Assembly: GCF_020745735.1 (NCBI RefSeq)
Contig: NC_083408.1
Span: 33,758,484-33,822,483, forward strand
From: Hemiscyllium ocellatum
Taxonomy: Eukaryota
Direction of reading: 5' to 3'
DNA: 64,000 bases
The translations under genes and the position numbers were made by a program. Under the pieces are notes generated by a model. That model saw nothing but the letters and a program-made list of their open reading frames with translations, searched no databases and was not told the DNA's origin. Shown here one piece after another: positions 6,905 to 64,000 of this stretch. Positions within the stretch are counted from its first letter, which is position 1, and each line of letters starts with the position of its first letter.

Positions 6905-7155
6905 GTTACACACAAAACAATCTTAACATGCTGAATTAAATACTAACTTCACATAATTACATCCTAAACAATCCTTACCATGCTGAATAAATACTGACTT
7001 TACATAATTACACATAAATAATCCTTATCATGCTGAAAGAATATCAATGTTACCAACACACGCTAACACAATCTTTGCCACGATGAATAAATATTAACTG
7101 CACACAGTTCACAATATGTAGCCCTGAGAATGCTGAATAAACATCAGCTTTCTAC
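6905..7155. repeat. Degenerate ~50-bp minisatellite, about 5 units
   Basis: Recurrent ACAATC(C)TT..CATGCTGAATAAATACT.ACTT.ACATAATTACA, decaying to the right. Confidence 0.8.
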
Positions 7156-15630: not shown

Positions 15631-16395
15631 TGGAGTTGGGGTGGAATTTCTTCTCTCAGAGAGTTGTGATTTTTTGGGGGGTATTCTCTCTAATAGAGAC
15701 CAAGGGAAGCCTCATCATAGAATACAGTTAAAGCTTAGAAAAGGCAATCCTTAACCAAATGGGATCAAGAGCTATGGGGAGCAGGCAAGGGAGTAGAGTA
15801 AAGCCAAGATCAAGTTAGCCATGATCTGATTGATTGGTAGACCAAGCTCACTCCCGCTTCTTTCCCTCTCTCTCTCTTACGTTCTTGCTACATTGAGTGC
15901 TTTGTGATGTTGAAAGTGTAAAAGGGACTAGAGATATCCAAGGCCTTACGTACTTCCACCAATTCCTCCTCTGCTTTTACATACTCTGACTTCTTCCTTT
16001 AACAAAGACCTTTTTTATGTGGTGGATTGTTAGCCTGATGCACAGTTCCTTACCAGAGTAGCAGCTAGTTGCTATCTCGACGATGGACTTTGCTAATTTA
16101 TATGTCCAAAATGAGTATTTTACAGAAGTCTGTTGCAGCTAAAAGCTGGCTGCAAATTCAAGTGCTGCCTGACAGTGTGGGGCCTATGAAGTAATACACC
16201 TGTAGTGTGTCAGGGAAACTTTAAACAGACAGAGTAACATAACAGGAAGTGATTACAAGGGTACAATCTCCCCTCTCCCAACAGAAAACCACCTTTTGCA
16301 GAATGTGTATGTTTCGGCCTTTCACACATAAAAGTGTGTTAAAAAGCAACCTTCAACTCTGGTCTGTGTGTGTTAATAGCCTGATATCTGAGTTT

Positions 16396-16605
16396 AGGAA
16401 AAAGTGAGGCCTGCAAATGCTGGAAAGTCAGAGTCGAAAAGTGTGGCGCATAGCATAGCAGGTCAGGCAGCATCCAAGGAGCAGGAGGGTCAACCTTTCG
16501 GGCATAAACCTGATGAAGGGCTTATGTCCGAAACGTTGACTCTCCTGCTCCTTGGATGCTGCCTGACCTGCTGTGCTTTTCCAACGCCAAACTTGTCAAC
16601 TCTGA
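16396..16605. mobile_element. Penelope-like fold-back insertion (older)
   Basis: Same family, with inverted arms. Further copies at 41872-42097 and 42599-42805. Confidence 0.78.
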
Positions 16606-17644
16606 TATACTAGTTGATAGATTAGTCTACTGTAATGATCACACCTCTGAAAACAATCATTTAAACACTTCGACATTGCAGGTAAAGAAAAAAACACCTC
16701 TCACCCTTAGTGCTGCCAGTCAGGCACTGCCTAAAGAAATCCAGATAAAGGCATTTCAAATTAATCTATACAGCAAGAATCTCAAATTTGACTGTTTAAT
16801 TACCAACATCAATCCAGTCAGTAAAGTCCACTGCAAAAGCCACAATATTCAACTATCTTCTCTTCACAAACAATCCAAAGATAGATACATGCATGCTTTA
16901 AACCCTTATCACTTTGCATTCACCTCATGTGCACGTGTTTTGAGTTTTTATTTCTCCTTGAGTTTAGTAATTAATAAGTTCACCTTTTTGTTTACTCAAG
17001 AAAGCCTGGTTAACTTGGTTCCTTTTAAAACTGAGTTTCATTCGGGTCTGGGAGACAGGTATCCACAAGGGAAGGGATCGTTTTAAAATTAACCCTGTTG
17101 TGACCAATCAAAGGAATGGATAAATATTGAATGGGAGCCAATTCACCATTCCTCACCCAGGAGCTAAACAATTTGAGATATCTGGTCTAAAATCATAATA
17201 AATGGGGGAACCTCACAAAGGGAGGGGTTGTAACAGTGCAGTAGGGACGCCATCACCTCTGCCAAGACATGGTAATCTCTCTGCATATTAACTCAGGAAT
17301 TGTAAAGTGTGTTTGGGCAACAAAATTACCTGAACAGACACTTTAGGTGTGGCTTGACACAATGCAGTGCCCCACAATCTTGTTTGAAAGTTCAGGGAAG
17401 TAAAAATGCTACAGATGGACTGTCAGACTCCAATACATGTAAATAAAGGAGACTTCCCTGTGTCAGAGTACTATGCACACCCTCTTGTGCATAATCTTTA
17501 CCTTCCAGACTCCTCCGAATGATTAATATAGTGTTATATGGACTACTATAGAGACCCAGCTGAATGGTGTGAACGTGTAAGTGTGTACTTAATTTTGCCT
17601 CCTACTTTGTACTGACTCTTCAAATGCTACACACACACACAGCA

Positions 17645-20340: not shown

Positions 20341-21649
20341 CTGGGTGATACTCTCAGGGAGATTGCCTGACCTGCTGAAAATTTCCAGCATTCTCCGAGT
20401 TTGATTCAGACTCCAGCAGCTAGCGTACTATACCTGCTGCCCATAATGTTTCTGCCTTCAGTTTCAGGTGCAGTTTGATTGATGCAGTATTACTGTTTAA
20501 AGTCCCATCTTAACATGAAAACTGCACAGAGTTTTCAGACAGAATTGTAAGGTTAAGTTTAGGTTTTTTTCAAAAAAAAAATAAATGACGCCAGAGCTTT
20601 CTGACCATGGGGTCCCTTGAGTCTCCAGTGAACACATGTTGAACGTGTTATGAAGTGTTATCGAGCAGCTGGCGAGTAAGTGTGGAAAGCTAGACCTTTG
20701 CTCTGTGTGGCTGCAGAAGGACTGTAATGCCTCTGCACTGTAACTGTGATTTGCACAGTTACTGCACCACTCTATCTATGCAGAGCCTAAAAACCCCAAA
20801 ACTACAGAGAAAGTGCAGATGGCAGACCAAATCAGTGAGGGAGTATGTCATGAATGTGTACATGGTGAAGGATGTGTGGATGCTGCTCTCCAAAGTCTGT
20901 GCTGCATCGTACCATTTTAAAAATGTGATACTGAGCAGCTTCCTCCCGCTGTTAAAAAATTATCTCCAGAAAAAGCCTGGGGGATAAAGTAAAATTTGCC
21001 ACAATGCTGGTAATATCATGGGAGCAAAAGGAACATTAAATACTAAATCTCCATCCAGTGTGTAATCAGTCACTTTCCTGTTCTTTGCCTGAAGATCATT
21101 CACACCCTCTGCCTTGTAACAGAGACAGGTCCTCTGGTAAATCCTGCGCAATTTGTTATGTGAATCTTTTGGGATTGATTTCAAAAGAGCCTGGAGTCAA
21201 AATCCAAGGTAAACCTAAGGGGAGGAGAGGTCCCCACATTATTCTGCCCGAGTATATTGAGAAGATTGTGAGCGTCGCCTGTCTCTCTGTATCATTGCCA
21301 TGATAAGTAGCAAACATCTCCCCAACTCTGTCTGCCCAAAGCACATGGCTTTGTTTCAACAGCAGACTCCAGTGTTTTAATAAGTTGCACCTTTAACATT
21401 GTGAAATGTACTTCACAGGAGCATAACCAGACAACTCTAACACTGAGCCCCATCAGAGGTATCAGGATAGGAGACCACAGGCTTTCATAAAGAGATCAAC
21501 TTTAGAGAACATCTTAACAAAGGGGAGAGGAACAGAGAGGTACAAAGGTTAGATTAAGAATGGAATTCAAGAGGTTAGAGCCAACAGGTGTAAATAAAAC
21601 AGGGAGTAGTCACAAAGAGCTAGAATGGAGGATAATAAATATGGGCTGT

Positions 21650-22365
21650 GTGGGGTTAAGATGGCGGCAGAGTAAGACACTGCAGCCAGAGCTCCTCTAC
21701 TTGCCAGTTCCTTTTCCTTCCTTTTTTATTTACTCCCGCTGTAGTTTCTCTTCCACCCTGCTCCCCTCAAAACCTTTAACTTCTTAAAATACCCTACCTG
21801 GAGGGAATGGAGAAAAGAGTTCAAGACCAGCCCAGTCTGGGAGGCGAGTCATGGCGGAGAGGGAGCAGAGAGAGTGCGGGCCAAGACCCAGAAGTGAGTT
21901 GCAGCTGGAGCAGCAGCACAGCAGGTGTGGGCCGAGCTGGGAGCCATGTTGCGGCTGGAGCAGCAGCACAGCAGGTGTGGGCCGAGCTGGGAGCCATGTT
22001 GCAGTTGGAGCTGGAGCTGGAGTGGAAGCAGAGTGAGCCCAGATTGACCTGGGAGATGAGTCCTGGACAAAAGCTAGCATGTGCAGGCAGCATGGCCTCA
22101 TGTTCTGAGGCCTGATGGGCACAAACTCAGTGAGAAAGGATTATAACTTGAGTACTTTAAAGATACTTTTTATTCTCATTCAGGACTCTGTAAACTCTGT
22201 ATTTCCATGCTAGTCTATTTTTGTTCACTATTTCAATTCTTTAACAACTCTTAAAGTATCTGTACCTAGGTATCCAGTACCTCAGATGGTGCCAAGACGT
22301 GACATTACAAACCTTTCACTGCACTCATTCCAATGCATGTGACAATAAAGGACATCCTTACTCTT
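21650..22365 (+). mobile_element. Non-autonomous retroelement-like unit containing a 50-bp tandem repeat (21898-22010)
   Basis: Starts AAGATGGCGG and ends CATGTGACAATAAA, a 3' end like that of 19490-19748. No intact ORF. Confidence 0.5.
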
Positions 22366-25308
22366 GGTGGGTTGTGGGGATGTTGTAAGTTAAAGAGTCA
22401 ATGAGGGGCGATTTGAACACAAGCACTAGAATTGCAAATTCGAAGCATTATTTGATCAGGAGCTGAGACTGGTCAGTGAGCACGTGCAGAAAGATAAATG
22501 GGGTTTGGTGTAAGAGCAGGATTCGACAATTCAGCCCCTTGAGCTTGCTCCACCACTGAATAGGATCATGGCTGATCTCACCTCAGCCTCAACTTTACTT
22601 TCCTGCCTTCTCCCTATGACTGTTTAATCCGTTAGTAATTCAAACTCTGCCCATCTCCTGCTTTGTCTTAATCTCTTAATTACTTCAACATTATCAAAGG
22701 CTGGGAAGGAATCTTTGAAGGATTCTTGGACTAAACAAGAAGCAAAACAAAAAAACTGGCTGTTTAATTGGGTTTACATATTCTGAAGAGAGGAGTACAA
22801 GGGAATAGTAGGGAGGTGGAGTTGACCCATGAGAAGGAGACAGCTTTGTTGATTACAACAGCGTGCCCCTCTTCCCGAAACTGAATGTTCAGTCAATCAA
22901 TGGTTTGTTTCATCACAGCCCTGAAGCACAAAATGGTCATTAAAAGTTGAGCTGAAGTTTTGCATCCTCTATTTTCCTCCTTCAGGTTTGCATCACCAAG
23001 TTTAACTTCAGTTAGGGGAAGTTACTATTACAACTTACAAGCAATTGCTGAGAAGTTTCAGGAATCTATTATCTAACTCTGAGTCACTGAGTACTTGGGC
23101 AAGTGTGAGCAGTGAGTCAACGTGGATTTGTGCAGGATAGTCATGCCTGACTAATCCAGCAGAATGCTTTTGGGATGTAATTAGGTGGAGGGGATGGGAG
23201 TTGGAGGTGGATGTTGTCTGGATGGATTACCATCAAAAATTTGACAAAGCTCCACCCAAGAGACTGCCTCTCAATCTACTAACCTCAAAATAATGCAGCC
23301 CTAAATCGCACATGCAACTCCCATCTCTTGGTTTCAGACTTGGAGAGGATTTGAAGAGTACATGAAGTGAATTGTCAAATTCCCAGCTCGGCCCACACCT
23401 GCTGTGCTGCTGCTCCAGCTGCAACATGGCTCCCAGCTGGGGATGGGTCTCAAACGAGGGGGTATAACCTTAAACATCAGAAACAGGCCATTTGAGGGGA
23501 AATTTAGGAAAGGCTGCTTCATGCAAACAGTGGTTAAAGTGTGGAACTTTTTGATGCAAAAAGCAGTAAAAATTAGCTCAATTATGAACTTTAAATGTTA
23601 AGATCAATAGGTTTTTTTTTGACAAAAGCAACAATCAAAGAATACAAAGTTGGATGGTTGGAGTTAAGATACAGATCATCTATGATCTCCTTGGAAGAGT
23701 CTTTAGAGGCCTACTCCTGTTTTGAAGTATCAATTTGATAAAACTGCATTGTATCCCCTCCAAAGCCAACATGTCTTTCCTGAGACAATGCACCTATTAC
23801 AAACTCTGTTTGAAGTCTGTCCGAGTCATTGTAAAATTCAAGTACACCTTCCTGGTTTACCGTGACAATGGGGCCAACACTGCGCTAGTCTCTTCAATTA
23901 ATTTTTGTACCTGTTCACTCATCTTTGTTCAGATTTGTCTACCTGGACATGAATACATTTTGCTCCCGCATTGTTTCTGATTCCAATACTGCTTATTTTG
24001 TTGATAGAAGTGTTTTTATAAATCATTCAGAGATGTCAATGTCACTGGTTATAGAGTCATAGAGTCACACAGCAAGGAAACAGATAGCATTTACTGCCCA
24101 CACCTAATTGCCAAGAGGGCAGTTAAGATTCAGTCACAGGATCATGGTGGCAGATGATTTCTTTCCCTCAAGGAGATCAGGGAACCAGATGACAATAGGT
24201 TGCTACTAGACTTGCTTATTTCCTTCCAAACTTATACTGAATTCAAATTCACCAAGGTGGGATTTGAATTGTATTCCCTGAATTTGAGCTTGGCACTCTA
24301 GATTACTCGTCCAGCAATACGACCACTACGCTATCACCTCCCCTAACAATAATTGCAAGGACAGCACTAGGAATGGCTGAAAGATGATGATGTGTGTGAG
24401 ACTCAAGTCCTTGGTCTTGAGATACCCCTGAAGCAGAGTTAGTTGACAGTTTTTGTGGGAGAATTGAACATTGAAATTTCCTAGCATGAGAGCTTTTGTA
24501 CTGATTTCTCCAGAAATAAATACCTTTGTGCATCACAACAACAACAACTTGTGCTTATATGGCTCCTTTCAACATCCCAAAGTACATTGCAGGAACATTG
24601 TGAAACAACAAAGGAACCACATGAGAAGATATTAGGCTAGAATTCTGCTTAAAGAACTGCGTTATAAAAAGTGCCTTCAAGGAGGAAACCTGAATCCCAT
24701 CGTCATTGTCATCTCTTCATCCCTGCTGCAGAAGAAGACCCTGCACAAATCAACTCCACCCCCTCCCCCCCCCCAAAAATAAGTCCAGTTTCCAATATTT
24801 ATTAATTACAGGTTGGCGTTATTGATTTCTCTCAGCCTTACACAGTCTCACCATAGGATGGACAGTCAGGTGTGACAGCTTTTACATCTTGTGGGAGAGC
24901 CATGTTTTTAGATCAAGTTTCCAAAAGTCACAATACATTTATGGTGGAGGGAAGCCATTCAGCCAAGTATGAAGCCAGACAGATTGAAACCAGCATTCAG
25001 TCAAGGTTTGCACTTCCACTGCTCTATCTCGGAGTTCATTGCCGGTACTGATTAACTCAGTGACAAGGATTTCTTGACATCGGTCTTCAACTGGCTTTTC
25101 CTATCTTTGTCTTGCTCTTGCTATTTTTTGAAGTAATTTTCCAAATTTGCTTTTCTCCATGCCACTTACCATCTCCTACAATCCTACAGGATCACTTTTC
25201 AACCACCCTCTTTTTGGGATGAAGATCCCAAAACTCTCCAACTTTTCCTTATAACACAGGCCTTTGATGCTGGAGATCAGTCTAGCAACTCTTTTGCTCC
25301 ACCTACAA

Positions 25309-26487
25309 TGAGTCATAGAGATGTACAGCATGGAAACAGACCCTTTGGTCCAACCTGTCCGTGCCGACCAGATATCCCAACCCAATCTAGTCTCACCTGC
25401 CAGCACCCGGCCCATATCCCTCCAAATCCTTCCTATTCATATACCCATCCAAATGCCTCTTAAATGTTGCAATTGTACCAGCCTCCACCACGTCCTCTGG
25501 CAGCTCATTCCATACACGTACCACCCTCTGTGTGAAAAACTTGCCCCTTAGGTCTCTTTTATATCTTTCCCCTCTCACTCTAAACCTATGCCCTCTCGTT
25601 CTGGACTCCCCGACCCCAGGGAATAGACTTTGCCTATTTACTCTATCCGTGCCCCTCATAATTTTGTAAACCTCTATAAGGTCACCCCCTCAGCCTCCGA
25701 CACTCCAGGGAAAATAGCCCCGGCCTGTTCAGCCTCTCCCTGTAGCTCAAATCCTCCAACCCTAACTCCTGTACTCAATACTCTGATCAATAAAGGAAAG
25801 CATACTAAATGCTATCCTATCTACCTGCGACTCCACTTTCAAGGAGCTATGAACCTGCACTCTAAGGTCTCTTTGTTCAGCAACACTCCCTAGGACCTTA
25901 CCATTAAGTGTATAAGTCCTGCTAAGATTTGCTTTGCCAAAAATGCACCATCTCGCATTTATCTGAATAAAACTCCATCTGCCACTTCTCAGCCCATTGG
26001 CCCATCTGGTCAAGATCCTGTTGTAATCTGAGATAATCCTCTTCGCTGTCCACTACACCTCCAATTTTGATGTCATCTGCAAACTTACTAACTGTACCTC
26101 TTATGCTCACATCCAAATCATTTATGTAAATGACAAAATGTAGTGGACCCAGCACCGATCTTTGTGGCACTCTACTGGTCACAGGCCTCCAGTCTGAAAA
26201 ACAACCCTCTACCACCACCCTCTGTCTTCTACTTTGAGCCAGTTCTGTATCCAAATGGCTAGTTCTCCCTGTATTCCATGAGATCTAACCTTGCTAACCA
26301 GTCTCCCATGAGGAACCTTGTCAAGTACCATATCTAAGTCCATATAGATCACATCTACTGCTCTGCCTTCATCAATCTTCTTTGTTACTTTTTCAAAAAA
26401 TTCATCAAGTTTGTGAGAAATGATTTCCCATGCACAAAGCCATGTTGACTATCCCTAATCAGTCCTTGCTTTTCCAAATACATGTAC
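25309..26487 (-). mobile_element. 5'-truncated CR1 LINE, same family as 9045-12743
   Basis: Near-collinear with 11420-12740, including FADD and the 3' tail. Internal deletion at ~25762. Confidence 0.92.
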
Positions 26488-29400
26488 AGAGATACACTGA
26501 GTACACAGTGCTCTGAAGGTAGTACTCCATTTTTGCATCACCCCTGGAGCTTGGTAGCTGAAGATGGCCCCGAAACAATCCTACAGCAAATGTGCCATCC
26601 AATACTACTTGGAATTGGTTCCTCTTTGTTGTGGATGGGGCTTCACGTACTGCTCCCCTACCTGACACCTCTGGGCAGAAGCTTACAGGTCCGCTACATA
26701 TCACCACATTTAACCTGCATTTGTCTTAGTCCTCTCACAACATCCCAGCATCTGCACTCCAACATGGAATCTCAACATATGAGTTGTTCCAAACGTTTTC
26801 CATGGCTTTGTAGTTACTTGGAAACTTTTGGGATAAGGGCAGCCTTGTTCACTCACTGTAGTCTGTGGCTATGGATAGACCCATACTGTGATTAGCAAGG
26901 AAATTCCAGGATTTTGCCTCAGTGACAGTGGTAATATAGTTCCAAGTCAGGATATTGAGTGGCTCAGAGATGAACTTGAAAGTGGCTGTTCCCTTCATCT
27001 GCTGACTTTGTTCTTCTTGATGGTTCAGGTTGCGGGTTTGAAAGATGCCCTCAAAGGAGTATTGGTAAGTAGCTACAGTGGATGTAGCAGATGATAAATA
27101 CTGCAACCAACCCATCTGCTGTCAAGATCAGTCGTTCCCACTCACCTCTGAAGGTCTTGTTTGGAACAACGTTGGAATGAGGTCAGGAGCTGAATGCTTT
27201 CGTGAAACCCAAGCTGTGTGTCAATGAGCAGTTTATTGCTGACTAAGTGCTGCTTGACTGCACTGTCAACAATAGCAGTCTCTGGGAGACCGGACTGTGT
27301 TTAATGCTCTAAACACGGTCTAACCAAACTTCCACAGACCTCTCTACTTGCTAATTCTCTCGCTCTAGTAGTGAAATGGAACCTAACGGAATCCTCATCA
27401 ACAATAAATTATGCCTTGCCAAGATTATTTTCAAAGTAGAAACCTGGCACACTGTGTCATCTGGTCACAACCCTGCACTCCGTGGCATCTAGGGACTGGC
27501 GCAGGATTACCATAACTATCCAGAACAGCTACAAGGGAACAAAACCTCGATTCTAAATTCTAATGAGCACCACACCCAACTACTAATTGCTTTTTCTCCC
27601 TCCAAGTGCCAATTACCCTTCTGTGCACTTCCCCAATTTTCTGCTTGTAAAGTCATTCAAACTTTGTTGGTGGTCATAGTAATCATTGACCTCATAGCTA
27701 AACTGTTACTGTGTGCAGGATTAATTGAGCACATTAAGGCTTTTCAAATAACTAGCTGAGCTCAACAACTCTCCCAAATACACCCACCCAAATAGGTTCA
27801 GAAGCATCAACACACGGACATTTTCAGCTCTTCACATCAACTTTGATGAAGAGTCATGAAGATGCAACATGTTATCTTGCTCTCTCTCTCCATGGATGCT
27901 GCCTGACCCGTATGATTTCCAGCATTTTTTTTTGTTTTAAGTACAGATTCCAGCATCTGCAGTAAGTTGCTCCTACATCTAACAATAGTTGATTAAAACA
28001 CTGGAGTGTTTGATGGGGTATACACAAAGCTGTTTCAGCCTTGAGGTCTGGAAGTCACTCTGGACCTCTCCACATATGTCTCCCCAGGTTTAAGGTGCTT
28101 TGTAAAATCTTCTTGACCAAGTTTTGTCCCGCTTTGGCCCGGTTTCAATTCTAAGTCTAAATAAAGCCCTGTGAAGCTCCCTGACATGTTTTGCTGTATT
28201 AAAAGAACAATTTAAATGCAAAGTTCTTCTTGTTATTGTCTGTCATCTCATCAGTGATTTGACTTGTTTCTGTTCTGCATTAAAGAAGGAAAACAAAACA
28301 AGAACTGGTACATACACAGAGATACTTTCACAATCCAAGGAAGTCCAAAAGTATTGTTCAGCAATGCTGTTTTGCGAAGTGCAGTCACTGTTGCAACATA
28401 GGGAAATGGGCATTGGCGAATTTGCACATAGCAAGGTCCCACATGATAATGGTCAGACAGTGGACTTATCATTGAAGATATGCTGTACATCCCCTGCTAT
28501 GCTTGGTGGGGGACAGTACATAACATGAATTAGGAACAGAAATAGGTCATACAGCCCTTCAAGTCTGCTCTATCACTCAGTAAGATAAATAAAGGGAGCG
28601 TTACTCTGTAAACTTCCCCATAACCTCAGAGATGCTGACACTGGGGTGATAACGCTAATTTATTCACTTACACAAACACAAAAGAAAGGAAGAAAAATGA
28701 GAAAGTGAAATCTGGGTGAAGGCAAAAACTGCACACCTCAGGACGACTTCGAAGATCAGTTCTGTACTGACCCACATCCTGCTCCTACAAACACCCAATA
28801 TAAAAAAAGAGATCACAAAAGCAAGACAATGGAACATTTTCATTTCGCCTGCACCTGTTTAGTTTTCATATGTTATTTGTGACCCAATAGATTTCATTCC
28901 TTCCTGGGTCAATGTTTCTGGATTCAAGACCCTGAGTTTTAACCCAAGCTGAAACTTCTGGTGCAGTACTGATGGAAAGCTGCATTGTCAGAGGTAGCAC
29001 CCTTTAGTTAAACCGAGAGCATGTCCACACCTTCCAAATGGACTTGCAAAATCCCACTTTAAAGACTTGACTCTTGACCCTGGCAACTAGTTATCTCTCA
29101 ACAACACAAAAGAAATGGGCTGAATCTAAGGACAAAAGAAATAGGAACTGGAGCAGACCACATGGTTCTTGAGGGCTGCCTTGCTGTTGATAAAAGTCAT
29201 GACTAATATTTATCACAGCTCTGCTCTCTTTTAAAACTAAAAAAAAGCTTAAGTAGATTACAGCTAGCACAGTCGATTGTGTGTGTTAGTTGGCCTGACC
29301 TGTAAATTCATGTTGTCTCTCAAGAAGATACTTTTGGAATCTACCTGTGTGCGAGTGGGCTATTGCTACATTTTCCTATTTTGCATTACAGTTCATTGTT

Positions 29401-30047
29401 GCAAAATCCTTTGAGATTTATAGAGATACACAAATATAACTTCCTGTTGGTCTTTTTTCTTCACTAATGCAGAAATTATTACCTCGATAGTAGGCCTTTG
29501 GAGTCCGTAAGTTGCATCATACTTTGAGGCTGATTGCCAGTTCTTGTTTACTTTCCTTGCAATGGAATTTTAAAGCATGAATGATAGGTTGTGGGCGTCT
29601 GTTTGATTTGGCTGAGGGAATAATTCCAGGAGCAGGGCAGAGACGTTTTGTCAGCAACGTGTTACAACCGAGAGACAAAGGATGGTTTTCATGCTTGGAA
29701 ATAAAAGCAGCCTCAGCAATCAGGGCTTGCAGCTTGGTGTCAAATAGAGGGTTCAATAAACAACCACAACAAAATCTCCCAGAGGGTCAGGAGGCAGGGT
29801 ACCACGGGAACAGTCCCAAGTCTTTAAACCAAAGTCCAAAAGACACAAAAATGGTGACAGAGAGAAGAAACAAATCACAAACCCAGCACATGAAGGGACA
29901 GCAAGGGTAAATTTACAGGTAAACATAAACGTTAACTCACTGACAACCTATTATAGTTTAATTAATTAGTTGTAAGACTAAAAAAAACAAACTTTAGTAG
30001 ATTGTGTGTATTAGCTGGCCTGACCTGTAAGACAACCCCTGGCATGT

Positions 30048-30359
30048 GGGCGGCACGGTGGCACAGTGGTTAGCACTGCTGCCTCACAGCGCCTGAGACC
30101 CGGGTTCAATTCCCACCTCAGATCACTGACTGTGTGGAGTTTGCACATTCTCCTCGTGTCTGCGTGGGTTTCCTCCGGGTGCTCCGGTTTCCTCCCAAGG
30201 TCCAAAAATGTGCAGGTTAGGTGAATTGGCCATGCTAAATTGCCCGTAGTGTTAGGTGAAGGGGTAAATGTAAGGGAATGGGTCTGGGTGGGTTGCTGGT
30301 CAGTGTGGACTTGTTGGGCCAAAGGGCCTGTTTCCACACTATAAGTAATCTAATCTAAT
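30048..30359 (+). mobile_element. HE1-type SINE
   Basis: Same structure as 39987-40300. Confidence 0.9.
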
Positions 30360-32585
30360 TGTGGCAACACAATTTATAGTTTTGCATACACTTGATGCAG
30401 CGGTTAACAACCTCGCCCACCACCCAACCTTTTCAGCTCTGACTTTTTAAAAATACTTTGACGGGATGTAGGTGTCAAATACAGCAGTGACTCCACTTCC
30501 CTAACTGCCTTTGAATTGAGTGGCAAGCCAAGCCATATCAGGGCAGTTAAGGGTCAGCCATATTGTTCTGGGTTTGGAGTCACAACTAGGCTAGATCAGA
30601 TAAGGACGGAAGATATCCTTAAAGGACAGCAGTGGATTGGATGGTTCTTTACAATGGTTTTTGATAGTTTCAGAGTCACTACCTACTAAAATTAGATTTC
30701 AATACCAAATTTAGTTTTTTTTTCCTTTGATTAAATGAATCTAAATTCCATCAACTTTTGCAATGGTATTTGAACCATTGTCATTGGAGCAATAATCTGG
30801 ATCTTTGGACTACTAAAATTACCCATGTGCCACCATTGCTTATATAAATAGTCTGTCTCAATGTTAATCTCATAAGTGGATGTTTTAATTACTGGTACTT
30901 TATAAGTGGGCACAAGGGATTGACCAGGTGAAAGAGCATGTGTTACAAAGATGCGCAAGAGTTTAAGATAATTCTACGCAGATCAGATCCCAAGTGGTAA
31001 ACAACAAAAGTTGCCGTCACCATATACATGCAGAAGGCTATCATTTACTGGTGGCACATCAGCTGACTGCCAACTCTAGAGAATCTAATGATTATTATGG
31101 AGACATGTTTGGAGAGTGCCAAAGGTTGGTAATTAAATATTGTAGAATACCTGACATTTATAAGCAATAGAAGGAATGGAAAGTCAGGAGAGGTAGCCCT
31201 GTTGATTCAGAATGGGATAAAGATAGTAGGGAGAAAAGACCTCAACTCAGAAAATCCAGATGTACAACCAATTTACGTGCACACAATAAACAACAGAGTG
31301 AACACAATGAAGGGAGTCATGTTTGAGCACTCTTACAAAATAAGTTAGAGGCATATTGTGATTATGTTGAACTTGAATCTTCAAGTACAATCTAAGTTGG
31401 GCAAACCAGATTTGTTATAGCTTTGCACAATCAAATGCCTTGTGAAGTCCTTACCTCTGAATCAGAGGCTTTGGCTCAAGTGCCACTGTAGCTACTTGGT
31501 AGCCAAAGTAGAAACATTCATAATGCAGTCAAAGAGATACAGTATCAACTTGGAAATACTTTTAACACACATTAATGGCAGGTGGTAAGATTCCTGGCCA
31601 GTTATGGAAATAAACTGGAGTCTCTACTGTCACTATCCATAGCTCCAGGTTACAAAATACATGTAGAGGTGTTTGCTGCCACAGCAAGCCAGACTTCCTG
31701 GGTAGTTGGTTAGTTAGGCAGACACTTTGGATTAGATTGGTGCCAATAACAGAGTTTGATTCCTGTTCTAACTGGACTGAATTCAGACAGTGTTAGTCAA
31801 TAAACTTGGAGCAAATGAAGGAGAGCTGTCACAACATGATAAGAATTTAATAATGAATTTGCAAGTGATTTAGTTAAACAAGGAATTTGCACTTAAACAC
31901 GAACAAAGCATACTATATAGGCAAGAGGACTGGGTTGGCTAAGCGATACTGGGAGACCAGATCAAAAGGCTATAGGTAGGTAATGACGAACATTTAAAGA
32001 GTTAATTCATAATTTGTAATAATTTTCTGCTGCTTTATGGAATAAAAATCCATGGGAAAAGTAGTTCAATTCTGGCTAACAAGAGAAGCTAAAGACAGTA
32101 GTAGTTAAAAGGCTTGCCAAAAGTTCTAAACACAAAGTTTTAATGCATTATAAAATCGACAAAGGGTGACCAATATATCAATAAAGAGAAAAGACAATAT
32201 GATAATAAACTAACTAGAGCCAAAAAAATGTGAAAGCTTCAATTATATGTTAAAAGGAAGAGATTAGCAATTGTAAATATGACTGTTTGAGAGGCTGTGA
32301 CAGTGTAAATTATAGTTATAATTACATAATTATATCAATTATAATTATTGAATTATAAATATAAGTATGTTATTGACAAAATCATTCTAGAGTATGAAAA
32401 ACTGCAGGATGGCCAACACTATAAAGTTTTAAAGAGGGTAACAGAGACAACAAGTGCATTAGCTTTAATCTTACAGAATTCCCTGGATTCTGTAATGGTC
32501 TCCAGGAAGTTGAAGATAGCTAACATAATCCTGCTATTCGAGAAAGAAGTAACAAATCAAGGAATTATAAGATAGTTATACTAAG

Positions 32586-52600: not shown

Positions 52601-53920
52601 ATCTCATTTTGAGCAATAACTTGAGAAATGTTTTTCAAAATTTGACAAGGACAAAGAACTTTAGATTACAATCTCTTAAACTTGAATGAGTCACAAAGAC
52701 GATAAAAACTGCATTATATGCATTACATTTGGTAGGAGTGCTTAAAAAAAATTCATTCTTTGGAAATGCAGTCAATGGTGAATCACTCACTGCAGCATAC
52801 TCAGTCCATGAATTTTCCTTGTAGCTTAGTCCTCCAGAGATCTAAACTGGAACCTCAGCAGTGGAAAAAAAACACGATATGTATTAATAACTTAGATGAT
52901 GGAAGAGACAGGTGTCTATCCAGGTTTACTGATGACACTGTCAGAGGTGGCCCAACCAGCTAGGTAAATGAGAAGAGACAATTGACAGGTGAAATGAGTT
53001 GGCAAAATGAAAAGGAGACTTTCTAAATGATACGAACAGTGTAAGGATGCAAACATTTAGACGAGAAAAATAGTAAAGAGATCCTGCCAGTTGATGTGAC
53101 TATAACGCCGATCAGATACTCACCCTGCATGTACCTTGGAGTTAAGATCAACATGTGTTGAGTCAATGGGCATGAGTGAGATGTAGCCAAACCAGGTGTA
53201 AATAACAGAGCACAAAATCCAGGTCAGCTACAGGAGACTCCGATGAGCACTGCAGTCATATGTTGGATAATGCTAATGGTGATGGAAGGCAAGATTCTGG
53301 GTGTGTTAGCTGGCCTATCAGACAGCCTCCAGTCTTTGTCAAAGACCCTGGAGGAGCCCTGCTCCAATTTAACAAGGGCATTGCACAGAGCTTATCTTCT
53401 TTTGCTCCATCAGTCAGTCATGTGGCAAAGCTAGAGGTGCAGTTCGTGTAATCAGGGCCAAGAAAAGAATTGATGGATCCCCATACTCCTCCTGGCCTAG
53501 CCGTCCAACCAGAGCAGAGCAGACCCTTTGAGCCTTGGACTTTGGCTACTGTACACCCTTCCCCACTGTACACCTGGTTCTGCCTGCAACTGCAGAAACA
53601 AATTGCTGGAATGGTGAGATTGTCTGTCTGAAAGGAGGTATTGAAGAAACCCAGTCAGTGTTCTCTGGGGTTTAGAAGAAAGGGAAGCAACCTCATTGAA
53701 ACTTAGCAAATTTTTAAAAGGATGGATGTAAAATGGGTACATATGAAAAGCATAATTGTCTTGGCAGTGGGGATCTGTAAACAGGGACATTGTCGGAATA
53801 AATGGCAAGCCCTCTAAGACTAAGCTGAGGAGGAACCTCTAGACACAGAGTGATAAATCTTTAGAATTCTCTACTTCAGAGAATCAAGGAGGCTTAGCTA
53901 TAGGGTTTGTTCAAGACAAA

Positions 53921-54496
53921 TGTGAGAAACAAAACTCACATATTAATAAATTTCAGTCCGAGTCAAATCCGGAAGCAGCAAACTTTATTGATACGTTCCT
54001 GCAAGAAAGGGTGCCTAACAAGTAAGCACCTCGATCTGAGGGTTACATTCTGATTTATGCTGTTCAGCTGCGTGTCTCGGTCCTCCTCTTTCACCCCATA
54101 GGCTACGCGCTACAGCAAAAGTAACCAATCACAAGCTCTAGCTTCATTCCACCTTTTGTCTAGCTTCTCTCCACCTCTGTTTACTTCTCCCATTACTGTA
54201 AGCCTGTCGCCCCTTACTCTTATTTATCTCATTCCTTATATGGGACTATCCTGGCATAGATTGCTATCTTTGTGCGATCACCCTGCCAAACTAAATTCCA
54301 TCCATTGGCCATATCCCTCCTGAGACTGATATATCCTGCTACACGGTCACTCTGCCCTATTAGTCATAGATAATTCTACCTGTTTTTGCTTCTCACTGTT
54401 TAGTATTTTCGTGTGCAGCCTAATTTTATAATGTAAGTTTTTGCAGAAGCAACACCTGTTCCCTTATTCTGCACAATTTTAACTCTATATCTTACA
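53921..54496 (-). repeat. ERV 3' LTR (576 bp)
   Basis: Preceded by the PPT. TATA-like CATAAAT at 54053-54059 and AATAAA at 53984-53989 on the minus strand. Confidence 0.93.
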
Positions 54497-54498
54497 AT

Positions 54499-54514
54499 CC
54501 CCCCTTTTCTTCTT
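54499..54514 (-). promoter_or_regulatory. Polypurine tract
   Basis: AAGAAGAAAAGGGGGG, 2 nt before the TGTAAG start of the 3' LTR. Confidence 0.9.
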
Positions 54515-54546
54515 GGCTACTAAGTATTGTCTTCTGCATTTGTCTC

Positions 54547-56444
54547 CTACGTTGTCTTCCAGTTCGCTAGCATCATCCCTGAGACTTCATTTACAGTGGC
54601 TAATTCATTAAGGCCACCCCTCCCCTCATTGTTCAAGTGCTTGAGCTCCTCTGCCTGATTACCTTTTAGAGGCATTTGTTTTGCCAAGGCCGTCTCAATT
54701 AGCCGCTGGGTTAGCCCTCATACACAAGGTATGATACAACAGCCAATTGCTGTCAGTACCCCTGCTACCACTATCCGGGAGGTGAGGATAAAGACTACCA
54801 CACCTTTCCACTTCCCAAACCATGATTCCAGCCATCCGGTGAGTGATGTGTCCACTCCTGAATTCTCAGCCAATTCTTTTGCCGAGGTGGTCAATCCTTG
54901 CAAGGCACGAGAGATTGGCCCATCAAGTGCTGTATTATTTGCAATAAAGGTACAACAGCTACCCCCTAACATCTCACATACACCCCCTTTTTCAGCTAGG
55001 ATCATATCTAAGGCCAGTCTGTTTTCCCAGGCCATTCTGTTGGTTGCATCAAGTTGCTTGGAAATACCCTTGACTGCATCTCTAGTGTAATTGATGAATC
55101 TTTGCTGGTTGTAAAAAAAAAAATGGAATTTTATCCAGTCCACATTCTTGTTGACCATTACCCACCAAAATAAGACTGATTCAAAACCTGCTGGAATCTG
55201 GTTGCGGGTCTTAAACTCATCAGGGACCCCTCTAGGAACTCCTCTAGAGTCGAGACAAATCCTATCATCAAAGGAAGTATCTAATAGCGACCTTTTACCC
55301 CTCCCATTCTTTGTTACTATCTCCTTCTCAAATGTCAAGGTGAATGGGATTGCCAATTGCCCATATCCCACTCCAGTCAGGAGGTAGGGTATGTCGCACT
55401 ATTCTGCCTCCACAGTACCACCAGAGATCCGCCTGGGGATCCTGGAGTGCTGAGTAGTTCCCTCCTTTGTCTGTTTCGGTGTAATTCTGAGTTTCTTTCC
55501 ATAACTTCAGCTCCCCCAAGTTTCTAGACCAATTTGTACCCTGTCGGCTTATACACGATGTGTGATTCCTGACCGTGGTTAAAAATGGGGAGGGAGCTTT
55601 CATATCTGTCTTCTCCAAGGGAGGGAACATTCCAGATAGGGATATACAATTCCTATCATTCCATGCAGTCTTATCCTGATACAGGGCGGTCATACATTCC
55701 ATGTCCTTCCTAGCGGAAAGGGGACTATGTGGGCAACTAGTCTACCGGAGGCACGTGCATAGCAATTGCTTTTATTCAGAGTTTTAACAGTGTACTTTAC
55801 CCATTCAACCCAAGCATTTGCGTCCCCGTATCCAGTTTCTATTTCAATGGTCTGCTTCAAGTCCTTCACCTCTATAATTTTTACCACCTCTGGGTCATTG
55901 GGAGGGGCAAAATGTTGTATCTTATTATCCAAGTTGTTTGGCTCGTTTTCCATTTCCTACAACTATTCGGAAACAGCAGCCCGAAGAACACTTCCCAGCG
56001 GCTTATATTACTATCTTTAAATCATCTTTACTAAGGAGTCGGGACCTGTTTTAACAGGGAAGGGAGTTTTCAGAGGAGGTATTCCTAATGGTGGGATTTT
56101 TGGGTGGCACTTTCTGTCAGGACAGTCTAGGACTGGGCGAAAGGGGACTCTATGGATAGTGATGCCAGGTGGCAGTTTTTGCGAACCATACCTTGTGTCC
56201 GGTAGGGTCTTAAGAAGGATTTCGGAGAAAATATACTCCCTCTGATACTTTACATCTGCACATTTTACTAGGCTGCAAGCATCGACCTCTATTACTTATG
56301 GATATTCAGACTCCGGGACCGTTAATAACAAATATGGAGATGACAGCATCATTTGACAAATCCCAATACTAAGAAAGCTAATATGGTAACCCTAAGCGTC
56401 TCCAGCATCCTACAATAGTATTGAAGGACCGAGAGATTTAACAT
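54547..56444 (-). pseudogene. env: env remnant (SU and gamma-type TM)
   Basis: Hydrophobic leader, SU motif IETGYGDANAWVEWVKY, furin site RGKR, ISD-like ENRLALDMILAEKGGVC, CX6CC and a TM anchor. Split over several frames. Confidence 0.9.
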
Positions 56445-56504
56445 GCAATACAATATATAGATATCAAAAAGAAACTATCCTGGGTTCACATAAAAATCAG
56501 TTAC

Positions 56505-57105
56505 TTAAAGTCTTTTGAGTCTGAGTTTCAGTGTTTCTTCTGTTGATTCGGCTGTCCAGACTTCTTTCTTAACTAGGGATTCCACCGGTCCTTTAATCCT
56601 GGTGTAGTGAGTCTGCCCTTTCTCCGCTGTGCGTATCGCCGTTTCAGTAGTCAAAAGAGCCTGGTACGGTCCCTCCCAATCCGGTTGCAATTTAGTTTCT
56701 GTCCATGACTTAATTAGGACCCAATCTCCCGGCCGGATGGGATGAATGGTGAATTCAAGAGGCGGAGTCTGTGCCAGTAATCTGTCTTTTCTTAAGAAAA
56801 GACAAAGACGAGGACAAGCCCAGTATATACTTTTTTAAGAACAGATCTTTAGTTTCCAGGTATGGCAGTTCCCCTTTCATTCCCAGATAGGGCAGGCCAA
56901 ACAATATCACATAAGGGGACAGCCCCATATCTTTCCTTGGAGCTGTCTGCACTCGCAAAAGGGCTATAGGTAAACACTTAATCCAAGGGAGTCTGGTTTC
57001 TATTATTAATTTAGATAACTGCTTCTTGAGTGTCTGGTTCATTCTCTCAACCTTCCCTGATGAAGGTGAGTGCCAAGGGGTGTGAAACTCCCAGGAGATA
57101 ACCAG
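56505..57105 (-). pseudogene. pol: pol remnant: integrase C-terminal half only
   Basis: WEFHTPWHSPSSGKVERMNQTLKKQL (catalytic E), then LQPDWEGPYQALLTTETA (GPY/F motif). Frameshifted. Confidence 0.9.
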
Positions 57106-57759
57106 AGCTGTCTTAAAAGGATTTGTCTATTCAAGGTAAAAAAAAAATCTTATAATGCATGAATAATGGCCGAATCCAAGGTCACAGATATTAACCATAG
57201 GATTGATTTATTACAATCTAATGTTGAACTGAAACTTCAACTGTCATTGAGGGAGGGAACTTTCTGAATAAAGCTACGGCTTAAAATTAAGTGAAAACAA
57301 ATGAGTTTGAAACACAAAAAAAGGTTATCATGTTGTTTTCCTCTGTATTAAGCTGATTTGAAATCGCTTTTATGTAAGGATAAAAGCGATTAGTTAGAAA
57401 CTGATAGTAAGGCAGTCATGACCTGTTAAAAAGAACAGGAGTTAACATTTTATTTCATAATCACTGTTAAAATCCTTAACCCTTAAAAAAAATCATGTTA
57501 AATTTCCAAAAAATAGAAATCCGATTCAAAACCGTCCCGGATCTCGAGCTCCAGGGAACAAAGCACAAACATTCATTAAACATCAAACAAATGTGCATTC
57601 AAACTGAATCACAAAGGGTTAAACTTTCTATTAGTTGTACAGCTCTTTTCTCTCTCTCACTCACTCACACACACCTCACAGACACTTTGAGCTTCCCGCA
57701 ACAATAACTCTAGAGGCTTCTCGCTCCACCCCTCTATCTTTTGAATCTTTTTCTAGATT

Positions 57760-58440
57760 TAACACCCTGCTTGTTGGGGTCTCCACCTCTGTCCTTGTCC
57801 CTGCAAACTGGACCCTACAAAAGGTCCTTCTCATCCTCTAGCCCTTCCTCTATATTCTACATGCTGCCACCCTCCACTCTGATTGCTAGTCACCTGTTCG
57901 ATTCTTTTCTTGACTACTTTGTCAACCGTGGCTACCATCGTTCTCGCCTTCTGTTTTTGTTTCTCATCCTCTCTCTTTACAAATACTTTCTGTGCCTCTC
58001 TTAATAATTCCTCAAGTGATTTCTTACTCCACCCATCTATTTTCTGAATTTGTTTTTGATGTCAGGCCATGATTTAGTTACGAAGTGTACCCTCAGTGGC
58101 CCTTCAGCTACTAGCCCTTCCAACACGAAGCATAATCTGATCCCTCCTGCCTGAAAGGCTGTTTTCTTTTGACATATAAATTCAAATATTTACAAACACA
58201 GTCTTTGTCTGACCCGTACTTTGGCCAGAAGACGGCAGGACGAAGAATGGATTCCTTAGTCCACATAAAGCAACAATATTTAATTATCTTTTTGCTATCA
58301 TTTTCCCTTGTACAAGTATTATTTTTCCAATTCCACAACATCCTGCCCAATGGACTTTCTGGAGGTATGTTGTCAGGGACCCCGCCTCCATTTCCATTTT
58401 GTTTCCCAGAGGCTTTTACTTTATCCTCGGCACAGCCTAT
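57760..58440 (-). pseudogene. gag: gag remnant (MA fused to CA C-terminus; stops at the NC knuckle)
   Basis: IPPESPLGRML...IIKYCCFMW...FWPKYGS (HERV-I-type matrix) jumps at ~58110 to LRVHFVTKSWPDI...LEELLREAQKVFVKREDEKQKQK. The presumed start reads ATA-GGC-TGT (M-G-C mutated). Contains stops and a frameshift. Confidence 0.85.
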
Positions 58441-58696
58441 ATTGAGTTCCTTCATTAGACACTTATTAACTACTAGAACTCAATCCCAGCCACCAAGGCT
58501 GTACTTAAAAATCTCTTTTCCTACCTTGGTCCATGCACGGAGTTGCCTGGCTCCCTGTGTCGATAGACTCTCATCGGATCTCAATCAGTCAACCAGAAGG
58601 AGAAACCCACCACCGAGGAACATGGGACTGTTCTAAAAGGAACAGGATGTGTCTTCCCAACTGTCGACTGTGACCACCCTGCTGGTGATGATGGAT

Positions 58697-58714
58697 ATCC
58701 AGGACGAGCCCCCA
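58697..58714 (-). promoter_or_regulatory. Primer-binding site, tRNA-Pro
   Basis: TGGGGGCTCGTCCTGGAT is a 17/18 match to the canonical tRNA-Pro PBS TGGGGGCTCGTCCGGGAT, 3 nt after the 5' LTR. Confidence 0.92.
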
Positions 58715-58717
58715 AAT

Positions 58718-59397
58718 TGTGAGAAACAAAACTCACATATCAATAAATTTTAGTCCGAGTCAAATTCTGAAGCAGCGAATTTTATTGATCCGTACTTGCA
58801 AGAACAGGTGCCTAACAAGTAAACACCTCGATCTGAGGATTACATTCTGATTTATGTTGTTCAGCTACGTCTCTTGGTCCTCCCCTTTCACCCCATTGGT
58901 TACTTTTGCTGTAGCGCATAGCCTATCACAAGCTCTAACTTCACTCCACCTTTGTCTAGCTTCTCTCTGCCTCTGTTTACTTCTCCCATTACTGTAAGCC
59001 TCTCGCCCCTTACTCTTATTTATCTCATGCCTTAAATGGGACTATCCTGGCATAGTTTGCTGTGTTCGTGTGATCATCCTGCCAAACTAAATTCCATCCG
59101 TTGGCCACATCCCTCCTGAGACTGGCACACTATTCTCCTGTTACTGGTATATCCTGCTACACGGTCACTCTGCCCTTTTAGTCATAGATAATTCTACCTG
59201 TTTTCGCTTCTTCTGTTTTCCTATGCCTGGTACATCCTGCTACACGGTCGCTCTGCCCTATTAGTCATAGATAATTCTACCTATTTTCACTTCTCACTGT
59301 TTAGTATTTTCATGCGCAGCCTAATTTTATCATGTAAGCTTTTACAGAAGCAATACCTGTTCCCTTATTCTGCACAATTTTAACCCTATACCTTACA
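58718..59397 (-). repeat. ERV 5' LTR (680 bp)
   Basis: Starts TGTAAG and ends CTCACA on the minus strand, followed by the PBS. About 90% identical (hand count) to 53921-54496, with an extra 83-bp tandem unit in U3. Confidence 0.93.
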
Positions 59398-61351
59398 ACA
59401 AGGCTCAAAAGATTTCCAGATACTAATGGTATCAAAGGACATAGAGATGGCATGGGTAAACAGCATTAACGTGTATGATCAGCCATAAGTTGGAAATGGC
59501 AGACAGGCTGAATGGTTAACTACTGTTCCTTTGTTTGCTAACCTCTTGCAGTCTTTGTGACAGTATGGTTAGGTCACCCACTCCTGTTATTCCTGTGAGA
59601 ATAGCAATGATTGCAGCAACAAAATGCTTCCAGAAACACTTCGCAGTATTTCCAGGCACTCTGCAATTACAAAGGTCTTTAAAATCACAATCACCGAGAG
59701 CCTGGCCATCTCAATATCATTTGTGCGAAGTCTGTTTTAGTGCTTGCTCTTTATTAGTGCCAGTTCTGCTGTTTGTTTCTGGCACACACAAAGAAGCCAT
59801 GTACCAGTGCCCTGCTTAAGGACGTACCACACTGCTGCACCACAAAAAGCTGGGGACACACTGCTCGCTTCCAAGAAATTGCAAGCCTGATGTAGCAATT
59901 TGTGACTAATTCAAGCTTTGGATTTCTCCAGCTTCAGACCAAGTGAGATTTTTGACACCAGATATCAGTGTCTGACCTGGGTTAAATTTGCTTTTTACAT
60001 TCCCCGTATCATAAAATCTTAAATATTCTTATATGGTTAAGGCAAAAAGATGTAAATAGATTGCTATTTCCATCCTGTCTTTTGATAATAACTAGAATTC
60101 ACTGTACAATAGGGATTAAATGGCTGCCTATATAGATTTTGTCATCACTCAAGCCAATTATGCAGTGATTCAACTCAATAAACATTTTACTACACTTCTC
60201 TGGTGGAATAATCGCTTGGGCTGATAAGTAAATGGATCGTATGAATTAAGAGGTGTATACCACTAGCTGCTTGTGCTTTCTCCATTAATATGATTATACC
60301 TCATCTGATCATTCCACATTCCTGTCTTCCCCAATACTTTTCCACTCCTTTGTTTATTGAGGGAGTGCCTCAGTTGAATGTCTTAGGTTCAGACATTTTA
60401 GCTGCTTTAACTGCCCTCAAAATAAGTTCAGAAATAGGATTTCACTGAAGATTGCACAATGTTCAGCATCATTCGCTTCTCTTCAGATCTATGTCCAAAT
60501 GAAGCAAGACTTGGAAAACATCTTGGTTCGTGCTGACAAATGATGACAAGTAACATTCATGTTACACAAATGCCAGACAATGAACATCTCCAACAAGAGA
60601 GAATCTAACCACCCAAACTTGACCTTCAATGACACCACCATTGTTGAAACTCTCACTATCAACATCTTGGCGTTACCATTGACCAGAAACTGAACTGGAC
60701 TTGCCAAATAAATACACTGGCTACAAGAGCAAGTCAGAAGCTATGAATTCTGCTATTAATAACTCGCCTTTTAACTCTCCAAAGCCTGTCCACCATTTAC
60801 CAGGTACACATCAGGAGTCTGATGGACTACTGCCCACTTGCTTCGTGGACAGTATATCCAGCAGACCATAAGGGTTCTGAATCTGGCTGTCTGTGGCAGC
60901 CATCAACTTTTCATGGAGGCAGCCAAATGCTCATGTACTTAAGGCATGGGATCCCAATAGCATTAGTGCAACCCTGTAATCCTTGTCAGGTTGCTCAGTC
61001 TCCTGACAAAGCTGCCTGCTACTCCTGTGTCTGTGTGCATCAATGAAGTCCCTGATCACAGATATCATGGGCTCCTCTCCTGACTGGGGCTGAGCAGGTA
61101 CCTAATCTCTGGAAGTCCTCTGAGTGCCAGCGACCTGGGGCATTTGTTCTTGGGCCAGCTGCAGAGATGTGGCAGTGAAGTGCTGATCTGCATGTGCTCC
61201 ACTCCAATCTAAATAGATACCGATACTGTGGTGTCGGTATCTGAGACATTAGGGAATGGGAGTAGGCTTGCAGGAGGCAGCCTCGCCTGTGCTTCCTCTG
61301 AGATAGAAGAATAATGTCTTGCAGCTCTGCCTTCTTGCCCATGGAGATTAT

Positions 61352-62383
61352 GGTGTGGAGGTGCCGGTGTTGGACTGGGTGGTCAAAGTTAAAAATCACA
61401 CAACACCAGGTTATAGTCCAACAGGAAAAAGTGAGGACTGCTGATGCTAGAGATCAGAGTCGAAGAGTGTAGTGCTGGAAAAGCACAGCAGCTCAGGCAG
61501 CATCCAAGCAGCAGAAGAATCAACATTTTGGGCATAAGCTCTTCATCAGGAATGGTTACAGTCCAACAGATTTATTTGGAAGTATAAACTTTTGGAGCTT
61601 TTCTCCTTCATCAGGGAGCTTGTGGGGTAGGTTCATAGCACACAGAATTTATAGCAAACGATCAAAGCATCATGCAACTGATGCGATGTATTGAAGAAAC
61701 CTAGATTGCTGTTAAGTCTTTAACTCACTTAGAATGGGATTGCAGATTTCAATTTATTAATATGTACATCCCAGAATTACTTTAAAGTCATGTTCTTGAG
61801 ATAACTTAAGGTTTCATACAAAAAAGGTGACAGCTTAGACAATGCATTAAAGGTGTGAGGTTAGAGTCTGATTGCATCCCAACTTGAGTCAGACTACTTC
61901 TGTTTCCAAAGTAGGAATTTATAAAATGTCACATGGATTGACTGCCTACAGATTATGTGCTTATTGTGGAAGCAGTCAGTCCATGTGACATTTTATAACT
62001 TCTTACTTTGGACATAGAACTAGTCTGACTCAGGGTTGAGATACAGACAAACTCTAACATTGGACCTATTAAGGCATTGTCTGAGCTGAGATGTCACCTT
62101 TTTTTATATAAAACCTTATGTTATCTCGGGAATGTGACTTGAAAGTAGTTCTGAGATTTACATATTAATGAATCGAAACTTGCAACCCAATTCTAAGTGA
62201 TTAAAGACTTAACAGCAATATAGATTTATTCAATACATTGCATCAGTTGTATGACACTTTGATCTTTTACTATAAATTGTGTCTTATGATCCTGCCCCAT
62301 TAGCTACCCGACAAAGGAGCAGCACTCTGAAAGCTTGTACTCCCAAATAAACCTGTTGGGCTATAAACTAGTATTGTGTGATT
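61352..62383. mobile_element. Large inverted-repeat element (second Penelope-like family) with a nested single-arm insertion at 61425-61553
   Basis: Arms of ~400 bp are reverse complements around ~61960. The nested insertion is flanked by GGTTA(T/C)AGTCCAACAG at 61409-61424 and 61554-61569. Confidence 0.8.
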
Positions 62384-63734: not shown

Positions 63735-63908
63735 AAAAACAAGGACTGCGGATGCTGGAAACCAGAATCTAGATTAGAGTGGTGCTGGAAAAGCACTGCA
63801 GGTCAGGCAGCATCCGAGGAGCAGGAGAATCGACGTTTCGGGCAAAAGCCCTTCATCAGGAATAGAGGTGACGAAGGGCTTTTGCCCAAAACGTCAATTT
63901 TCCTGCTC
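63735..63908. mobile_element. Penelope-like fold-back insertion with TSD
   Basis: 14-bp TSD CTTGTTTCTGGGGT at 63721-63734 and 63909-63922. Intact hammerhead-like core on the minus strand. Confidence 0.85.
63832..63859 (-). ncRNA. Putative minimal type I hammerhead ribozyme core
   Basis: CUGAUGA-A-GGGC-UUUU-GCCC-GAAAC-GUC: conserved core, perfect 4-bp stem II and palindromic ACGU stem III (dimer type). Stem I is weak and activity is untested. Confidence 0.5.
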
Positions 63909-64000
63909 CTTGTTTCTGGGGTGTCTTGCTTAGTTTCCTCAGTAATACTTACCAAAGGATGTTAAGTACAAAACTCTGGAAATTATTATGCCCAGATATT

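Follow-up and report, generated by a model that had tools for sequence, protein, structure and literature searches.

A class I shark endogenous retrovirus with two capsid ends and an AT-rich module in place of its polymerase, best read as a mosaic, helper-dependent family

Introduction

How does a provirus come to carry the end of its capsid gene twice, with AT-rich DNA standing where its polymerase should be? This question is raised by an element in a 64,000-nucleotide stretch of shark DNA (hereafter the window), in which gag runs to the start of the nucleocapsid (NC) knuckle, restarts inside the capsid and gives way to AT-rich sequence before integrase resumes. A first-pass annotation, made from the letters alone, read it as a chimaera of two viral lineages. 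Here, we compare the element with its protein relatives, with its own LTRs and with contigs from public sequencing runs, and we weigh how its parts may have been joined and whether the joined form was copied.

Results

The element is a class I provirus of 5.5 kb on the minus strand, running from 59397 to 53921 of the window. Its gag was laid against P0001, an intact gag relative of 546 residues. The features, in the order of the viral genome, are as follows.

59398–59402, minus strand: upstream copy of the 5-bp target-site duplication, equal to the downstream copy in 4 of 5 letters
58718–59397, minus strand: 5' LTR (TG...CA), its U3 with about 105 extra bases including a tandem repeat
58697–58714, minus strand: primer-binding site, presumably of the tRNA-Pro type, as in MLV
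58117–58422, minus strand: gag matrix region, 61% identical to P0001 residues 7–106
58110–58120 (about 58115), minus strand: join 1, from matrix to capsid end, with P0001 residues 107–396 (290 codons) absent
57762–58120, minus strand: C-terminal end of the capsid (piece 1) and linker to the first Cys of the NC knuckle, P0001 residues 397–515
57681–57760, minus strand: second capsid fragment (piece 2), P0001 residues ~417–442, with join 2 at ~57760
57642–57680, minus strand: (GT)n/(GA)n simple repeat directly after piece 2
57100–57641, minus strand: AT-rich non-coding module, of which length variants exist
57098–57105, minus strand: join 3, from the AT-rich block to integrase
56508–57105, minus strand: 3' half of integrase, beginning past the second catalytic Asp, with one frameshift near 56790
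54600–56400 (ends approximate), minus strand: gamma-type env in several broken frames, TM with CX6CC
54498–54514, minus strand: polypurine tract
53921–54496, minus strand: 3' LTR, with 47 differences from the 5' LTR in 545 columns
53916–53920, minus strand: downstream copy of the target-site duplication

Measured against P0001, gag proceeds from residues 7–106 to 397–515 and then repeats ~417–442. The piece 1 region holds a frameshift near 58050 and a stop at 57831–57833, and the (GT)n/(GA)n run at 57642–57680 is possibly what is left of the codons of gag's next charged helix. Absent are 290 gag codons, the NC knuckle, PR, RT, RNase H and the start of integrase; the element encodes no working enzyme today, while its cis signals are kept, with the same LTR on both ends and no third LTR inside. 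The first-pass annotation had called it a non-autonomous, env-carrying, vector-like element: the loss of enzymes and the retention of LTRs, primer-binding site and polypurine tract are borne out, but 'env-carrying' overstates an env that is broken today. Its description of an AT-rich stretch followed by integrase holds as well, with an AT content of 67% over 57110–57680 (70% over 57110–57500, against 57% in the window and 55–60% in the viral genes) and integrase similarity restarting at 57105.

The class I (gamma-like) assignment draws on the paired LTRs (TG...CA), the primer site, the polypurine tract and the target duplication (4/5 letters) and, at the protein level, on a Gag_p30-type capsid, an MLV-type integrase C-terminus (PF18697, 7e-10) and a gamma-type env with CX6CC (PF00429, 7e-6). 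The capsid match is that of P0001, in which Gag_p30 and CCHC domains were both found (4e-28 to PF02093, 4e-27 to the solved capsid 6hwx) and to which the gag pieces of the window are 59–67% identical; a Pfam search with the short capsid piece of the window alone returned no Gag_p30-type match. The closest named proteins come from Chiloscyllium punctatum and a skate, in keeping with a cartilaginous fish as the probable host, and we take the gag of the element to resemble the HERV-IP group (a HERV-I/HERV-IP-like lineage). Searches of viral contigs gave 36 pattern matches with integrase and 17 with gag, with no relative in either set.

We then compared the two capsid pieces (58055–57984 for piece 1 and 57752–57681 for piece 2, minus strand). 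The counts of the first reading were reproduced exactly: 18 of 24 residues and 49 of 72 nucleotides are identical, and 16 of the 23 differences lie at third codon positions (5/2/16 over the three positions), 10 codons differing by silent changes only. The pieces share one frame at a spacing of 303 nt with stops in between, and no other ungapped 72-nt match to piece 1 with at least 38 letters occurs on either strand of the 64-kb window. The third-position bias is significant (P=0.0004), retention of 17 of 22 residues never occurred in 20,000 neutral simulations given an equal number of changes, and pN is 0.13 against a pS of 1.1 in the 22 codons behind the frameshift of piece 1; silent sites between the pieces are near saturation. 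Thus, the proposed divergence under coding constraint is upheld. The 21 differences in 66 nt far exceed the 8.6% between the LTRs (47/545; P=8e-8), so that the divergence of the pieces predates the insertion, and with silent sites nearly saturated the pieces were not duplicated at the present locus, as the first reading had also concluded. On these counts, the two were thus functional genes while they diverged, and were joined only afterwards.

Did they diverge in separate viral lineages? The nearest relatives of the pieces differ: piece 1 is closest to the Chiloscyllium punctatum gag P0123 (20/22, against 17/22 for piece 2) and piece 2 to P0023 (19/22, against 17/22 for piece 1), with P0001 about equally near to both (19/22 to piece 1 and 18/22 to piece 2, or 20/24 to each). 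The patch was present in 100 of 164 fetched proteins, from which we took the 24 nearest and built a tree of 17 distinct rows plus the two pieces (19 rows, 22 columns). Grouping the pieces as one clade was rejected at a p-AU of 0.04, which is borderline with 22 columns and no well supported branch (0 of 16 branches starred). Separate lineages are hence moderately supported, by the different nearest relatives and the p-AU value, but not by any well supported branch, and the two gag donors may be described, with moderate support, as sister lineages. Piece 2 departs at two columns where 78 of 100 and 88 of 100 relatives agree with piece 1, which points to decay once selection had been lifted. A repeat native to intact relatives would have told against separate origins; P0001 is single-copy, and a doubled capsid end was found in none of the 117 and none of the 164 fetched proteins of two comparisons. 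A protein search with the doubled region itself gave 17 matches among 27 candidates, all of them single-copy gags and none aligned as a tandem.

The LTRs differ by 8.6% (K2P 0.093, 47/545 columns), in a comparison that left out the extra U3 segment and an inverted patch. Their age depends on the rate: 211 Myr at 2.2e-10, the rate assumed for shark ERVs in the accessible part of PMC4422223, which is too old to trust, or 93 Myr at 5e-10 and 46 Myr at 1e-9, rates of our own choosing. The target duplication supports a single integration of the mosaic as one unit.

Two local changes in U3 may be recorded here. A 32-bp patch including a CCAAT-like box has opposite orientations in the two LTRs (54098–54129 versus 58895–58926, 97% complementary), a hairpin-bounded micro-inversion in the promoter. 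At 59112–59218, the 5' LTR carries about 105 bases that the 3' LTR lacks, among them an 83-bp tandem repeat; contigs of three DNA runs have a tandem repeat at the corresponding place of the 3' LTR (54326–54393), and therefore the U3 repeat varies within the family.

Is the recombinant form present at other loci? To address this, contigs from four public runs with three species labels were aligned to 53500–58714 at 80% likeness; what follows comes from the best 32 of 13,218 pieces and, for loose ends, from the best 24 of 2,150 rows. X1, X9 and X15 are DNA runs, and X17 is guessed to be RNA, its AT-rich contigs being excluded as evidence of transcription. The locus itself is represented in X1 by a flank-LTR contig with no difference in 449 letters at a depth of 35.6. 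Join 2 is bridged by at least one X1 contig (record 6; 57681–57959, 36 differences in 279 and no gap), which is apparently a paralogue, too diverged for an allele; being at least as diverged as the LTRs, it matches the expectation for an independent insertion and not that for a segmental copy made later. Join 1 is bridged by at least two X9 contigs (records 26 and 27) with 39 differences each and 7–8 gap letters, given which their breakpoints may differ from that of the window; X9 record 28 departs from the window sequence at 58116. For join 3, no bridging contig occurs among the matches listed (32 of 13,218), nor does any contig there span all three joins. At 57098, at least 16 X9 contigs, together with X17 record 21, match the AT-rich block and depart on the integrase side, while X17 record 20 matches integrase and departs on the AT-rich side; the two branching X17 records overlap by two letters only. 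The claim of a mobilised family is thus supported for the joins at ~58115 and ~57760, which are shared with diverged paralogues, but not for the join at 57098, unbridged among the matches listed. Since two joins are common to paralogues, the recombinant form was probably copied and mobilised.

Contigs also depart at two other places. At least three X1 contigs follow gag below 58010 and depart inside piece 1, and gag copies with another capsid sequence therefore exist in that run. Right behind the integrase stop, at 56495–56497, at least 11 X1 contigs and at least one X17 contig depart, suggesting that the env or spacer at this place differs in other copies.

The same runs revealed a property of the AT-rich block that the first-pass annotation had missed: it is a very abundant family module with alternative neighbours. 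In all three DNA runs, it is as abundant as the LTRs, with summed depths in its bins of 18,800–27,800 (X1, 57154–57675, set against 35.6 for the contig of the locus itself), 6,000–7,500 (X9) and 15,700–31,500 (X15) that equal or exceed those of the LTR and matrix bins, summed contig depth not being a copy number. The bin of piece 2 and join 2, partly masked at 57642–57680, reaches about one tenth of this in X1 (1,917 versus ~23,000), so most AT-rich copies may be without join 2 and the exact form of the window may be a minority.

Searches for a signal within the block were largely negative. Its fold is not unusual (z -0.86, with 27 of 100 shuffles equally stable), Rfam gave no match at E<=1 over 53800–59500, and a scan for bacterial promoters, of a type not apt for such an element, found nothing. 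The block does hold two AATAAA hexamers, at 57454 and 57212. Three weak matches to the 164 gag and pol proteins (E 0.004–0.03) were rejected as protein traces, lying on the opposite strand or covering 15–24 residues, and 50 metagenome loci that matched a 19-base AT-rich motif were dismissed as chance, the longest alignment to the element being 26 letters. As a separate observation, a form of the block shorter by 115 bases (57245–57361) occurs in all four runs, together with several variants nearby.

Discussion

Based on the divergence of the capsid pieces, the sharing of two joins with paralogues and the abundance of the AT-rich module, we favour, at a probability of roughly 0.7, a mosaic that arose when reverse transcription jumped between co-packaged RNAs and that spread with the proteins of an intact helper. 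In such a history, a gag of one lineage would have been fused, where NC begins, with the capsid end of a sister lineage, which was already attached, or was later attached, to the AT-rich module. The 5' half, with its deletion between matrix and capsid, would then have been copied to further loci, as the shared joins suggest, presumably by re-insertion. The AT-rich module, which continues into other sequence in many copies, would further have been joined to the integrase–env–LTR end of a fuller provirus, and the finished mosaic would have integrated as one unit, as the target duplication indicates, and decayed for tens of Myr or more. Template switching between co-packaged RNAs is the joining mechanism that we infer, and spread would have depended on the proteins of a helper virus. 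Intact relatives of gag and of pol do exist as proteins; no helper provirus was found.

Could piece 2 instead stem from a duplication, much older than the insertion, within a single ancestral virus, such that a Gag with a doubled capsid end was selected for a while and then decayed? The pieces share their frame at a distance of 303 nt, fall into the same weak tree cluster of 7 rows and are each 20/24 identical to P0001, all of which such a duplication would explain. A shared frame, however, is a one-in-three chance, none of the 164 proteins is two-copy, the search with the doubled region turned up no tandem (17 matches among 27 candidates), and the residues that distinguish the pieces at two columns match different natural gags. 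Together with the p-AU of 0.04 for a single clade, and the fact that a coding Gag of this kind would be crippled by the loss of NC, we consider this origin quite improbable. The mosaic might alternatively have formed in DNA that was already integrated, with copies of the provirus interacting through gene conversion, ectopic recombination or break repair. The old locus and the very abundant family suggest this, and DNA-level change did occur here, as the LTRs differ by the 105-base segment and the 32-bp inversion. Yet a target duplication still flanks the element (4/5), an outcome that one crossover joining separate loci does not produce, and joins 1 and 2 occur in paralogues at least 13% diverged. 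We therefore regard DNA-level formation as unlikely overall; it is more plausible for join 3, unbridged among the matches listed, and conceivable for the founder element.

The AT-rich block might also be an unrelated mobile element or host repeat that had inserted into a deleted provirus, given that it is high-copy and non-coding and lacks similarity to the 164 gag or pol relatives beyond the weak off-strand matches. However, terminal repeats, whether inverted or direct, are absent from its bounds, the 64-kb window contains it only once, its depth tracks the LTR and matrix bins in all three DNA runs, and it replaces pol rather than interrupting it, which makes such an insertion very improbable. 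On the plainest reading, the block is a passenger that would keep the RNA packageable. More speculatively, and in our view doubtful, it could be a selected cis-acting RNA cassette for export, packaging or splicing, spread through shark class I ERVs and combined by exchange with various gag and integrase/env halves across three species or more, with piece 2 marking the donor lineage of its origin.

Taken as a mosaic of co-packaged RNAs, the element is best read as belonging to a helper-dependent ERV family of the Harlequin, recKoRV and ETn type. Mosaics of this kind are already well known, and what is added here is the evidence of copying in a shark element. In ETn, an AT-rich non-retroviral segment replaces much of gag–pol, and HERVIP10FH is likewise a non-autonomous element. 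As described in the available text of PMC2265474, ETn elements of the mouse are non-coding and high-copy and are moved by MusD proteins in trans; ETn and MusD are class II, env-less and still active with a known helper, whereas the shark element is class I and has an env region. HERVIP10FH, of the HERVIPADP group, has a composite internal sequence of ~5 kb (PMC5753468; PMC1431705, with 54% shared domains) and is compared here by description only.

For human class I mosaics, the accessible portions of PMC4724089, PMC5753468 and PMC1431705 invoke co-packaging, jumps of the polymerase and 'midwife' helpers; the first of these papers lists Harlequin and 97 re-integrated HERV mosaic chains identified by two criteria. 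Of these criteria, the shark element shows one in full (the same LTR at both ends) and the other in part (joins 1 and 2 in paralogues). Like Harlequin, it apparently combines several ERV lineages in one class I element, framed by two copies of a single LTR type, with defective gag and pol and a retained env region (PMC4724089, PMC5753468); Harlequin, in contrast, is human and has several named donors, while the insert here consists of a 24-codon capsid scrap and a 570-nt AT-rich block. In recKoRV1 of the koala, as far as the available text of PMC6112702 describes it, KoRV ends surround a piece of a high-copy defective element, and the breakpoints recur at several loci. The shark element similarly has both ends from one virus, a middle swapped for high-copy defective-element sequence and, at joins 1 and 2, apparently recurrent breakpoints. 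However, recKoRV1 is younger than 50,000 years, with dissimilar parents and mapped microhomologies (PMC6112702). The LTR divergence of 8.6% marks the shark element as old, the two contributors to its gag are closely related, and it still has one half of integrase and all of the env region.

Gamma-type-env ERVs of cartilaginous fish, including Chiloscyllium, have been surveyed, with high copy numbers in some and frequent recombination between env and pol (bioRxiv 10.1101/2021.11.23.469661). A pol-less family with an AT-rich module is not described in the available text of that survey, whose supplements may list the lineage. In the literature within reach, which left out most subscription papers and the repeat libraries, we found no account of the shark family or of its AT-rich module.

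The element changes no principle. It suggests that a cycle familiar from mammals, in which a retrovirus is disabled by recombination and its disabled form then multiplies with helper proteins, has run in cartilaginous fish as well. Surveys of shark ERVs that are seeded with pol would miss such a family, shared joins could serve as markers to order recombination events across species, and the AT-rich module is a candidate for showing which non-coding sequence successful parasitic ERVs keep.

Some neighbouring observations remain. P0023, the relative nearest to piece 2, is predicted to be an Ig-domain membrane protein of 583 residues, and its tail consists of the family's capsid end followed by integrase in another frame; P0023 is probably a gene-model artefact over a similar provirus and possibly a case of exonisation. 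Beside the provirus, the window holds a palindromic element of about 1 kb (61394–62383) with nested arms that are 75–88% complementary around a 6-base loop (61956–61961), fold-back or MITE-like in form. Two copies of a short repeat lie at 61466–61553 and 63776–63912, the second with a 42-base hairpin, and they probably represent a SINE or a small non-autonomous transposon.
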